From IMG/VR virus record IMGVR_UViG_3300025132_000026, positions 1-64,000 of that record: a stretch of DNA of 64,000 bases; one strand, given 5' to 3'. This document shows, in pieces, positions 32,941-35,400 of the stretch; within the stretch, counting starts at the first letter, position 1; every line of letters begins with the position of its first letter. Origin of the DNA: a virus. The notes beneath the pieces were generated by a model, which was not told the origin of the DNA, did not search any database, and saw nothing but the letters and a program-made list of their open reading frames with translations. A program made the position numbers and the translations under genes.

Positions 32941-34056
32941 TTAATTGGGATCTGAATAGAATTGATCGGCAGAGCCCTCTCTTCGATCAAACTTCTGCAC
33001 AACTTCCTCATCCATCAATTCCAAGATATTTTTTCTAAATTCCTCGTCTGTTTGAACCATTTGCGTCCATTTAGACGGCTGAAACTTCTTCTCGTATCCG
33101 CTGGGCATCTTAAGTGTGTACCAAGCGCCGGCACTTGTAAGGCGATCCGAACTCTTCACGGCCTCAAACCATGACTCTTCATCACGAATGCCAATATCTT
33201 CAGTGCCCCACAAGATTCGAAAAGCACAATTTCTTCCTTGTGTTCCAAATCTAGATTTTTCTAGCTTAACTTTAACTTCAGAACCGATCCGAAAACCCTT
33301 GTCGTCTTCGATAAAAGCAGACTTGGCTTTTCGCCCAGTCAGCCAAATTCGCAGAGAATAAGAGTAATGCATTGCTTTTCCGCCCGGGGTCATGTATGGA
33401 GTTGTCATTGCAACAATACGTGCATTAGGGCCGCTTGGGATATTTGTCTTAAGCTGATTGAGAACTATGAATGTGGCCTTTTTATCTGCAATCGGAATCA
33501 GCAACTTAGACATTCCTTTTGCCAGAATGCGGGCTTTGACGGCCATTGTTGACTGAGGGTTGAAGTCTCCCTCGACATCCGATACGGACGGTGTAAGCGC
33601 CAATGAGTCCCAAATAAAGAGAAGTTGCTCGTCGGTGGCTCCGAGAAGTTCTTCTACAGTCTCCAGTACAAACTCCACAGAGGATGCTTGAACGTACATT
33701 AAGCGTTCCAGGTCGCATCCTGCTCGCTCCAAAAAGGTTGGGTCAATAGCAGACTCGGAATCGAAGTAAACGACCATCTTGTCTGATTTCTGAGCGTTTG
33801 CTGCAATTTGCGCAGCCATATAAGATTTACCCGTACTTTCAAGACCAGCTAGCTCAGTTACCTTACCAACAGGAATACCTGCAACTTGTCCCTTGCAAAT
33901 AATTGAATCTAGCCAGCGAGAGCCAGTTGATATCCACTCTTTAACCTCTGTAGGATTTTCACCAGTTAAATCATGTGCGACATTTCTGCCGGCTTTTTTG
34001 TTAACGATTTTCATCAGGTCTTGCATTGAAACACGACCCGGCTTAGCTTTTGCCAT
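32941..34056 (-). CDS. recA: RecA/UvsX recombinase
   Basis: STGS..LD, GLESTGKS, FDSE, IWDSLA, NQ, TPGG; start moved to ATG 34056 (AGGAG RBS). Confidence 0.95.
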   Translation of the reverse strand: MAKAKPGRVSMQDLMKIVNKKAGRNVAHDLTGENPTEVKEWISTGSRWLDSIICKGQVAGIPVGKVTELAGLESTGKSYMAAQIAANAQKSDKMVVYFDSESAIDPTFLERAGCDLERLMYVQASSVEFVLETVEELLGATDEQLLFIWDSLALTPSVSDVEGDFNPQSTMAVKARILAKGMSKLLIPIADKKATFIVLNQLKTNIPSGPNARIVAMTTPYMTPGGKAMHYSYSLRIWLTGRKAKSAFIEDDKGFRIGSEVKVKLEKSRFGTQGRNCAFRILWGTEDIGIRDEESWFEAVKSSDRLTSAGAWYTLKMPSGYEKKFQPSKWTQMVQTDEEFRKNILELMDEEVVQKFDRREGSADQFYSDPN

Positions 34057-34080
34057 TGGCTCTCCTTTAAAATAAAAATA

Positions 34081-34110
34081 CAGCAGACTTTTTACCGGTC
34101 TGCCAGCGGC
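34081..34110 (-). promoter_or_regulatory. H-type RNA pseudoknot A, leader of recA
   Basis: GCCG-CU-GGCAGAC-CGGU-AAAAA-GUCUGCU. Confidence 0.65.
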
Positions 34111-34115
34111 TTTTT

Positions 34116-34226
34116 TCACTCTGCTGCTGTATCAGCAGAGCTAGCGGTGTCGGCCGCGGTGTCATCATCCTTATCCCCGCATCCCATCAATAGGGTAGCG
34201 GCAAGGACTGGTAGAACGAGTCTCAT
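34116..34226 (-). CDS. 36 aa lipoprotein (missing from ORF track)
   Basis: MRLVLPVLAATLLMGCGDKDDDTAADTASSADTAAE; AAGGAG RBS; lipobox LMGC. Confidence 0.75.
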   Translation of the reverse strand: MRLVLPVLAATLLMGCGDKDDDTAADTASSADTAAE

Positions 34227-34246
34227 TTTCTCTCTCCTTAAAATAG

Positions 34247-34276
34247 CGGCAGACTTTTGACCGGTCTGCCAGCGGC
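34247..34276 (-). promoter_or_regulatory. H-type RNA pseudoknot B, leader of small lipoprotein gene
   Basis: GCCG-CU-GGCAGAC-CGGU-CAAAA-GUCUGCC. Confidence 0.65.
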
Positions 34277-34282
34277 TTTTTA

Positions 34283-34555
34283 CTACTCAGTTGTTTCAGT
34301 AGTGGTGGTGGTTGTGTCACCGGTTGTCGTAGTCGCCGTGCCGGTTGTTGTGGTAGTGGCGGTCGTTGTTTCCGCGGTTCCAGTGTTAGTGGTGGAAACT
34401 TCAACAGTTTCTGTCGCTTCAGTAGTCGTAGTAGATTCTGATACTACTTCTGGATCAACAGTACATGTACCATATGATGTTGCGATTACAAGCGCTCCGC
34501 CTGCCAAGGCAACCTTAACTTTCCAGCTAGCTAATAGTGTTTTCAACCATTCCAT
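34283..34555 (-). CDS. Membrane-anchored Thr-rich small protein
   Basis: Hydrophobic N-terminal segment then T/E-rich tail; AAGGAG RBS. Confidence 0.75.
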   Translation of the reverse strand: MEWLKTLLASWKVKVALAGGALVIATSYGTCTVDPEVVSESTTTTEATETVEVSTTNTGTAETTTATTTTTGTATTTTGDTTTTTTETTE

Positions 34556-34583
34556 AATTATATCTCCTTATTATAGAAAATTG

Positions 34584-34619
34584 CGGCGCCCGATATTAAC
34601 GACCGGGGCGCCGACGGTC
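34584..34619 (-). promoter_or_regulatory. H-type RNA pseudoknot C, leader of Thr-rich gene
   Basis: GACCG-UC-GGCGCCC-CGGUC-GUUAAUAUC-GGGCGCC; compensatory changes relative to A/B. Confidence 0.7.
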
Positions 34620-34635: not shown

Positions 34636-35400
34636 CTAGTTTGCCATTAGTTCATCAAACGCTCGGTCCACGTCGCTTTTCTTATCGTATCGAGTGGTCT
34701 CACTTGAGCGTGATTCTGCGCTTCCATTGCCAGCCAATTGCTCATCTAGGATTGCGTCAACTTGCTCTGGAGTCAACCTCTCAAAGAGAGTATTGAATTC
34801 AGGGATACCATCAAGGAGGGCGGGGATGGCCTCTGAGTCCTCCAGAAGCGGCGAAGTGTTACGACGCATCTTTAAACTTGTCTGTGGGTAAGCCCCCGGT
34901 TTGGTGGGCTTAGTGTAAGTAAGTGTAATATCGGTGCCCTCTTGCACATCTGTGACATCACCGTACTCGGGGTCAAGAATATAGCCCAAAAGAAGCTCAT
35001 AAGCTGTCTTTCCGTAACCGTATATCTTGGCTCCTTCGTCTTCTCTTCCTCTCACAACAACTGGTGAGAAGAAACGGGTTCGAACAAACAATGATTTTGC
35101 AAGTTTCTTGCTTTCTTCATCGTTTTGATCGACGCCTTCGCGCCAAAGCTGCGAGGCGAAATCACAAATTCCGCAGCGTTCTCCAAAGTTGCGCTTAGGA
35201 CAAAGAATTCCGCCCTTATGATCGCCAACATTATAGTGGAAGAACATCTCCTTCAATGGGTCACCATCATTTGTTGGTACGATACGAATATCTGTATCGC
35301 CCTCATCGGGTTTAAACCAGACCGAAGCCTGCCCGGAGTCCCGATTTTCTCCGCGTAGTGTAGCGAGCTTTCGTCGCATAAGTTCCATGTCAATTGCCAT
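34636..35400 (-). CDS. T4 gp32-like single-stranded DNA-binding protein
   Basis: WFKP, IRIVP, H..C..C..C Zn site (FHY, LCP, RCGIC), G.D.TL, acidic C-terminus DVDRAFDELM. Confidence 0.85.
   Translation of the reverse strand: MAIDMELMRRKLATLRGENRDSGQASVWFKPDEGDTDIRIVPTNDGDPLKEMFFHYNVGDHKGGILCPKRNFGERCGICDFASQLWREGVDQNDEESKKLAKSLFVRTRFFSPVVVRGREDEGAKIYGYGKTAYELLLGYILDPEYGDVTDVQEGTDITLTYTKPTKPGAYPQTSLKMRRNTSPLLEDSEAIPALLDGIPEFNTLFERLTPEQVDAILDEQLAGNGSAESRSSETTRYDKKSDVDRAFDELMAN

Follow-up and report, generated by a model that had tools for sequence, protein, structure and literature searches.

A pseudoknotted RNA element behind SSB and capsid genes of uncultured phages: a putative leaky terminator or 3′-end stabiliser at cassette seams

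The window analysed here, 64,000 nt of DNA, is part of a 75-kb IMG/VR virus record (IMGVR_UViG_3300025132_000026, positions 1 to 64,000; estimated completeness 41%). On its minus strand, genes for a gp32-like single-stranded DNA-binding protein (SSB), a 90-aa open reading frame (ORF), a 36-aa ORF and a recA-like recombinase follow one another, and a short element of the same design (C, B and A, in gene order) lies behind each of the first three. Covariation among relatives shows that this element is an H-type RNA pseudoknot. Judged by its sequence and position, it appears closest to an intrinsic terminator to which a conserved pseudoknot has been added. We infer, with moderate confidence, that it is a pseudoknotted leaky terminator or 3′-end stabiliser, which doubles as a seam between gene cassettes. 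It was also found behind major capsid genes.

Three copies of the element in the window

The element is built as S1a-L1-S2a-S1b-L3-S2b, in which stem S1 pairs S1a with S1b and stem S2 pairs S2a with S2b. A sequence-only reading of the window had proposed three such elements on the minus strand, and all three were found exactly where and as it had described them:

34585 to 34619, minus strand: element C, GACCG-TC-GGCGCCC-CGGTC-GTTAATATC-GGGCGCC, starting 16 nt past the ssb stop codon, 36.9 bits (S1a GACCG 34619-34615; L1 TC; S2a GGCGCCC 34612-34606; S1b CGGTC 34605-34601; L3 GTTAATATC; S2b GGGCGCC 34591-34585)
34577 to 34584, minus strand: tail of C, GCAA and then TTTT (34580-34577)
34248 to 34276, minus strand: element B, GCCG-CT-GGCAGAC-CGGT-CAAAA-GTCTGCC, 6 nt past the TAGTAA double stop of the 90-aa ORF, 48.5 bits (GCCG 34276-34273; CT; GGCAGAC 34270-34264; CGGT 34263-34260; CAAAA; GTCTGCC 34254-34248)
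34240 to 34247, minus strand: tail of B, GCTA and TTTT, with AAGGAG immediately after
34082 to 34110, minus strand: element A, GCCG-CT-GGCAGAC-CGGT-AAAAA-GTCTGCT, 5 nt past the stop of the 36-aa lipoprotein ORF, 47.4 bits (GCCG 34110-34107; CT; GGCAGAC 34104-34098; CGGT 34097-34094; AAAAA; GTCTGCT 34088-34082)
34069 to 34081, minus strand: tail of A, GTA, TTTTT, A and TTTT, then the recA ribosome-binding site (RBS)

All three copies start 5-16 nt past the preceding stop codon. Behind each stand a T-run and an AAGGAG RBS, and the next AUG is 24-32 nt away. The extension of S2 to 8 bp, also part of the earlier description, can form in every copy. A and B are duplicates of each other, and a 17-mer common to them occurs twice in the window, against 0.08 occurrences expected. 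A covariance model on S2, built from relatives and run with filters off over the 64 kb, found only C, B and A, the next best hit scoring 11 bits. The nested minimum free energies (MFE) of C, B and A were -20.2, -13.5 and -9.4 kcal/mol, with only the S2 hairpin formed. A generic scan gave about a dozen comparable flank-loop pairings per window strand. Within the window an S1 of 4-5 bp is thus unremarkable, and support for S1 must come from relatives. The Rfam search that had been suggested as a check matched no family; with Rfam 15 there was no match at the gathering score over the window and none on the elements at E values up to 10.

The S1/S2 variant of C is also present in two relatives, L003 and L004 (L-numbers are labels of fetched loci). 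A promoter-like match, TTAATA-18-TATAAT (10/12), lies at 34570-34599 on the minus strand, overlapping the loop and tail of C directly 5′ of the RBS of the 90-aa gene, and its TATAAT is retained in the same two relatives. The promoter scan showed no promoter between A and the recA RBS.

Covariation in both stems

The loci of the best 80 of 332 SSB relatives, with 81-97% protein identity, were fetched from IMG/VR. In this family S2 occurs in several compensatory variants (GGCAGAC/GTCTGCC, GGCAGAG/CTCTGCC, GGCGCCC/GGGCGCC, GGCACCC/GGGTGCC and GAGGCAT/ATGCCTC). The first three pairs of S1 (CCG/CGG) are invariant, and pairs 4-5 co-vary in part (C-G, G-U, G-C, A-U and U-G; GACCG/CGGTC versus AACCG/CGGTT), with mismatches in some clades. 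Taken alone, the variation of S1 inside the SSB family is only suggestive.

An unbiased test of S1 was therefore made by scanning IMG/VR with TGGCAGAC-CGH...GTCTGCC, a pattern that left the 5′ flank unconstrained and took copies with a third loop base other than G. Of the 80 unique copies, 51 have a flank that can pair with the loop start over 4 bp or more, and 33 have one that can do so over 5 bp or more; our own estimate of the chance rate for 4 bp, (6/16)^4, is about 2%. These stems are entirely different in sequence, with TCG/CGA, GCG/CGC and ACG/CGT cores, and reach 7 bp, as in ACTCTTG/CGAGAGT and TCCCGCG/CGCGGGA. Covariation was computed on a gapless alignment of 79 rows (A4). Its third S1 pair (5-19) was GC35/UA17/AU10, the fourth (4-20) CG30/GC12/AU8/UA6 and the fifth CG18/AU11/GU8/GC5. 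The covariation score was 0.323, against 0.138 +/- 0.017 for shuffled alignments; none of 500 shuffles scored as high, and slid registers reached at most 0.22. The covariation of S1 in this set, retrieved with a free flank, shows that the element is an H-type pseudoknot, and covariation in S1 and S2 alike demonstrates selection on the folded single strand.

The consensus geometry comprises an S1 of 4-7 bp (modally 4-5), an S2 of 7-8 bp with S2a and S1b contiguous, an L1 of 2 nt, usually CU, which shrinks to 1 nt if the eighth S2 pair forms, and an L3 that has 3-10 nt, 55% of them A. Cores measure 28-35 nt. The H-type fold and the gene-32-like geometry that the sequence-only reading had recognised were thus borne out.

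A search with S1 and L1 held fixed gave about 47 true copies, and 43 of these have GGCAGAC/GTCTGCC as S2. The few variants outside this main sequence were compensated (GGCAGGC/GCCTGCC and GGTATGC/GCATACC). The prevalence of one S2 is in part a sampling effect, since S2 was itself fixed in most retrieval patterns; L1 is CT in most copies, but its T was fixed in both retrieval patterns.

The element follows ssb whatever lies downstream

A search of related phages with the covariance model returned 104 copies in 79 of the 80 ssb loci, and the remaining contig ends directly after ssb. Every one of the 104 copies is on the gene strand and no more than about 820 nt downstream of ssb; the 80 loci showed none upstream of ssb or elsewhere in the flanks of about 4 kb. 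The first copy begins 1-29 nt past ssb; in L080 it was missed by the model and seen by eye. Nearly all copies stand in co-directional gene arrays, and the apparent convergent exceptions are wrong-strand readings of the palindromic stem.

The 3′ neighbour of the ssb-proximal copy varies. It may be the recA RBS (with a gap of about 76-100 nt), a small ORF, a sigma-70 promoter of near-consensus TTGACA-17-TATAAT type or a tRNA gene. Only 25 of 63 recA genes have a copy within 60 nt upstream; in the other 38 loci 0.2-3.5 kb of other genes intervene, and recA has its own promoter or follows another gene. Each small gene inserted beside ssb (homologues of the 90-aa and 36-aa ORFs, and a few others) has its own copy 5-15 nt past its stop. 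In the class in which ssb and recA are direct neighbours, the T-run is lost (ACCCTATTAATTAG) and the knot is retained. The constant neighbour of the element is thus the upstream stop codon, not the downstream start.

These positions bear on the function that the sequence-only reading had proposed, a single-stranded DNA (ssDNA)-sensing translational regulon. The knot would nucleate cooperative binding of free SSB along the A/U-rich spacer and the RBS behind it, and recA and the small genes would be repressed by surplus SSB and derepressed by ssDNA. The model for this idea is the gene 32 operator, which in T4 lies in the 5′ leader of gene 32 and consists of a knot of about 28 nt and, behind it, more than 40 nt of unstructured, A/U-rich RNA with UUAAA/UAAA repeats and the RBS (PMC535899). 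With the operators of T2, T4 and RB69 the element shares a compact H-type fold (about 28-35 nt) in which L1 is short, the second stem has 7 bp and the last loop is rich in A. Both are tied to an SSB gene of gp32 type, and both have an A/U-rich stretch behind the knot. The distance to the next start suits such an operator as well, both in the window copies and in the wider set, where it is 21-40 nt in 70 copies. Control of another gene by an SSB also has a precedent in M13, whose gp5 represses gene II mRNA.

The element stands after ssb and not before it, and the ssb leader, as the earlier reading had itself seen, has a plain hairpin only. Unlike the operator, it often has no RBS behind it, being followed by a promoter, a tRNA gene or a longer gap. 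Promoters and tRNAs behind many copies mean that the main transcript of the next gene would not carry the knot. The window spacers of 24-32 nt fall short of the more than 40 nt of T4, there is no sequence similarity to the operator, and the downstream gene is not conserved, unlike the gp5 target; contact between SSB and RNA is only hypothetical here. The fold is shared, but the element departs from the operator in two features of position, so we do not place it in the gene 32 operator family. Of the regulon proposal, the pseudoknot fold and a statistical link to SSB genes stood, and leaders controlling recA and two small genes were not supported: the constant neighbour is on the wrong side, 38 of the 63 recA genes do without the element, and copies also follow major capsid genes, in phages to which no SSB logic applies and in complete podovirus-like genomes as the sole copy. 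A LexA-independent, SOS-like switch on recA is an attractive idea that finds no support in these data, and an SSB operator appears distinctly unlikely.

A catalogue of IMG/VR RNAs (PMC10690425) lists 8,495 candidates. Terminator-like motifs are numerous among them, and 12 motifs precede gp32 genes. These 12 differ from the present element, which is downstream; the element itself may be among the 8,495. A literature search by element sequence returned only primers and no description of the element.

Distribution beyond the SSB family

Scanning viral sequences with the 15-mer pattern CCGNTGGCAGACCGG yielded 79 viral loci outside the earlier set. The complete element was present in 57 of them, and 33 of these 57 had neither a gp32-like SSB nor recA in the locus. 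Bacterial and archaeal genomes gave 80 loci with the 15-mer and a single complete element, at L227:648-690 (minus strand) on a contig of Victivallis vadensis, where it may belong to a prophage. In cultured phages a blastn search with the 37-nt core gave no convincing match.

Outside the seed family, 88 ORFs upstream of copies were compared. About 16 encode major head proteins (five PHROG families) and about 17 encode SSBs (seven PHROG families), including gp2.5-like, Enc34-like and bacterial-type proteins with DDDIPF tails; two minor tail proteins and one NinB/Orf protein were also among the 88, and, separately from these, a tail tube protein was found upstream of a copy. The statistical link between the element and SSB genes is real. 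Enrichment beside SSB genes of seven families would also suit an SSB operator; the copies behind capsid genes and non-gp32 SSBs set the element apart from the gene 32 operator.

One capsid family comprises 294 relatives. Nearly every member has CCCG-CT-GGCAGAC-CGGG-AAAT-GTCTGCC 7-14 nt past the capsid stop, followed by RCCC(A/C) and five to eight T, so that the T-run is strong here, and S2 hardly varies even where protein identity falls to 72%. Exactly one copy, after the capsid gene, is present in each of five genomes of 38-40 kb that are complete or nearly so, four of them with terminal repeats. None of these single-copy genomes has a T7-type RNA polymerase, which there ruled out a terminator for such an enzyme. 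The nearest cultured relative, pelagiphage HTVC010P, has about 40% identity; it has only 12 nt behind its capsid gene, and no knot.

Over 198 unique copies, the spacing from stop codon to S1a was 0-10 nt in 85. Their tails follow the consensus R-C-C-T-T-T-T-T, in which T reaches 44-62% from +4 to +8, and 92 copies (46%) have a run of at least four T, offset from the stem by R-C-C. The base 5′ of S2a is usually U, and the base 3′ of S2b is a purine in 82% of copies.

A proposed leaky terminator or 3′-end stabiliser

Rho-independent terminators are found behind highly expressed phage genes, for example T7 T-phi after capsid gene 10. The element resembles them in its GC-rich stem and T-rich tail, in its place on the coding strand directly after a capsid or SSB gene, and in the occurrence of one copy per small genome. 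The stable 3′ hairpin expected of a terminator is present, with stems of 7-8 bp and the nested energies given above. It is unlike them in its large loop (8-14 nt), which pairs with the 5′ flank as a covarying pseudoknot, in a T-run that is offset by about 3 nt and absent in about half of the copies, and in a stem that is near-fixed across unrelated phages. The GC-rich stem, T-rich tail, coding strand and position past SSB and capsid stops, together with the single post-capsid copy of the small genomes and the frequent placement just before an independent promoter, led us to favour a terminator or 3′-end module.

The proposed module would work as a compact knot in the 3′ flank of the preceding gene. 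It would raise and insulate the expression of an upstream gene whose product is heavily needed, SSB here and the major capsid protein elsewhere, while a fraction of the transcripts would run through into the next gene. As a second role, it could form a protective 3′ end, a stable compact structure that resists exonucleases after processing. S1 might pre-organise S2a in a closed loop and so speed formation of the terminator stem; it might add stability or exonuclease resistance; or it might couple folding to the ribosome, which would mask S1a during its stay on the stop codon 5-10 nt upstream. Every small gene that enters between ssb and recA would bring its own copy, and the copies would serve as recombination points for gain and loss of cassettes.

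Several observations weigh against this explanation. The T-run begins about 3 nt past the stem, and fewer than half of the copies have four T or more. In the direct ssb-recA class the knot persists after the T-run is gone, so termination cannot be the sole role. The recA gene of the window has no promoter of its own behind three successive elements, and the element must therefore be leaky or overridden. A structural role alone leaves the near-fixed S2 across unrelated phages unexplained, and the over-representation of SSB genes from seven families may signal more than an abundant protein.

Copies as possible cassette boundaries

The second half of the favoured explanation, the seam between cassettes, could in principle be the primary role. 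Copies would then be short homologous repeats acting at the DNA level, through which small genes are swapped at the ssb-recA hot spot, much like PeSLs (promoter-early stem-loops), the composite terminator/promoter motifs of T4-type phages (PMC2839356, PMC4122927). In the relatives, ssb and recA are between 76 and about 3,480 nt apart. A single unit of lipoprotein gene plus element distinguishes L006 from L007, and its junctions fall inside copies. Every small inserted gene has a copy, and secondary copies are near-identical across phages whose ssb-proximal copy differs. As in PeSLs, a repeated stem-loop flanks small variable genes in a hyperplastic region, indel junctions fall inside the motif, and several copies stand directly before a strong early-type promoter. 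In L006, L007, L009, L015, L026, L080 and others the last copy has a TTGACA...TATAAT promoter behind it; there is none behind A or B of the window.

An identical near-consensus promoter, CCTTGACATTTAAAATCAAGGTGTTATAAT, was observed behind the last element in four relatives that otherwise differ (at about L006:3869-3910, L007:4685-4725, L015:5145-5185 and L080:1946-1985). By analogy, this promoter and the element together look like a PeSL-like terminator-promoter pair.

Recombination, however, requires identity of sequence and not compensatory changes, and both S1 and S2 covary. The complete genomes with a single post-capsid copy have no recombination partner for it, and all copies lie on the coding strand. 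Unlike a PeSL, the element carries no conserved promoter in its unit, is a structurally selected pseudoknot and occurs singly in genomes with nothing to shuffle; the phage here is also not shown to be of T4 type. Cassette-seam behaviour therefore cannot be the reason why the fold is conserved, and we consider a primary role in DNA exchange unlikely.

The near-fixed second stem, possible processing and recoding

The near-fixed S2 beside a freely varying S1 hints at sequence-specific recognition. Some factor that reads the sequence, be it a protein of the host or the phage or a folded ssDNA, might bind here, and the knot would be only part of what is recognised. The prevalence of GGCAGAC/GTCTGCC when S1 and L1 were fixed, its near-invariance among the capsid relatives, the CT of L1 in most copies (within the retrieval limit noted above) and the virus specificity of the element would all suit such a site. 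S2 nevertheless shifts by compensatory pairs (to GGCGCCC, GGCACCC, GGCAGAG, GGCAGGC/GCCTGCC, GGTATGC/GCATACC and GAGGCAT), part of its dominance reflects sampling, and no candidate partner was found. A factor-binding site in this sense is very unlikely. We keep it, like the SSB operator, in view, since S2 is near-fixed and the enrichment behind SSB genes of seven unrelated families is stronger than an abundant product alone would lead one to expect.

Pseudoknotted tRNA-like ends are substrates of RNase P, and the coaxial stack of S1 and S2, about 12 bp, might likewise pass for a tRNA acceptor/T arm, or for some other nuclease substrate, and so undergo cleavage by RNase P, E or III to separate the cistrons. 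The stacked stems of 7 bp and, modally, 4-5 bp, the usual U before S2a, the purine after S2b and the retention of the knot where the T-run is lost all agree with a processing signal. An eighth S2 pair that uses the U of L1 would account just as well for the purine at +1. Only about 6% of copies have an RCCA tail, which also speaks against a tRNA-like CCA end. We regard a processing signal as highly improbable.

The spacing of 0-10 nt between stop codon and S1a is typical of recoding knots, and a knot 5-10 nt past the stop could in theory drive read-through or frameshifting towards a C-terminally extended SSB or capsid protein. No slippery heptamer precedes the capsid stop; other frames close after 4-116 nt at non-conserved positions, with one exception open for 505 nt; the frame of the next gene varies; reading on in frame would add only a short, non-conserved stretch; and copy B stands behind a double stop. 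A recoding stimulator is hardly credible on these grounds and was rejected for want of a slippery site, for its non-conserved frames and for the double stop before B.

Neighbouring genes and other contents of the ssb-recA region

The genes between which the three elements lie are:

34636 to 35400, minus strand: gp32-like ssDNA-binding protein gene (Pfam PF08804 gp32, E 4e-13), whose 3′ end bears element C
34283 to 34555, minus strand: ORF for a 90-aa Thr-rich, membrane-anchored small protein, a cassette gene followed by element B
34116 to 34226, minus strand: ORF for a 36-aa acidic lipoprotein (lipobox LMGC), a cassette gene followed by element A
32941 to 34056, minus strand: recA-like recombinase gene (Pfam RecA, E 3e-35), downstream of A

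Homologues of the 90-aa protein, each with a copy behind it, were found in L003, L004, L006, L010, L015, L046 and L080, and one cluster of this protein accounts for 19 ORFs upstream of element copies. Those of the 36-aa lipoprotein, again each with a copy, were found in L007, L067, L073-L078 and L080. Both genes recur in many relatives as mobile units, each with its own element copy. Inside the lipoprotein ORF, at 34162-34214 on the minus strand, a sub-threshold Rfam match to RF03014 (Transposase-1 RNA; 29 bits against a gathering score of 42.8, E 3.6e-4) is probably due to chance.

Other insertions were seen in the same region of relatives. A tRNA-like gene (…GGGTAGAGCAGTTGGTAGCTCG…GGTTCAAATCC…) lies between the last element and recA in two close relatives, at about L004:4404-4490 and L005:3990-4075, indicating that tRNA genes, too, can enter the ssb-recA hot spot. 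In several relatives a small conserved gene (MSDSNKSGYELR…) has been inserted behind ssb, and its leader consists of a (CA)n run, ACATCACACACACACAGGAGAAAA, at about L021:4872-4885, L031:4873-4886 and L062:1480-1495. Beyond the window, at G000:C1:69719-69943 on the minus strand, a weak match below the cut-off to PF00940 (T7-type RNA polymerase family; 19.8 bits, E 8.7e-6) lies within an open frame of 541 aa.

Implications

It is conceivable, if less likely than not, that the element represents an undescribed, virus-specific RNA class, found just past SSB and major capsid stop codons in many unrelated phages from marine and other environments, whose fixed S2 (GGCAGAC/GUCUGCC) is read by a conserved host or phage factor, possibly SSB itself or the machinery of transcription or decay. 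It would then be a dosage device for the most abundant proteins and not a generic terminator.

If the leaky terminator or 3′-end stabiliser is correct, many uncultured phages, from 38-kb podovirus-like to large marine ones, would share one pseudoknotted module that ends or protects the messages of their most-used genes, and the same module would be the seam at which small genes are swapped. As an easily cloned part of 30-45 nt, it would make the role of a pseudoknot in termination or RNA stability testable. It would also provide a marker for annotating the ends of SSB and capsid genes in viral metagenomes.

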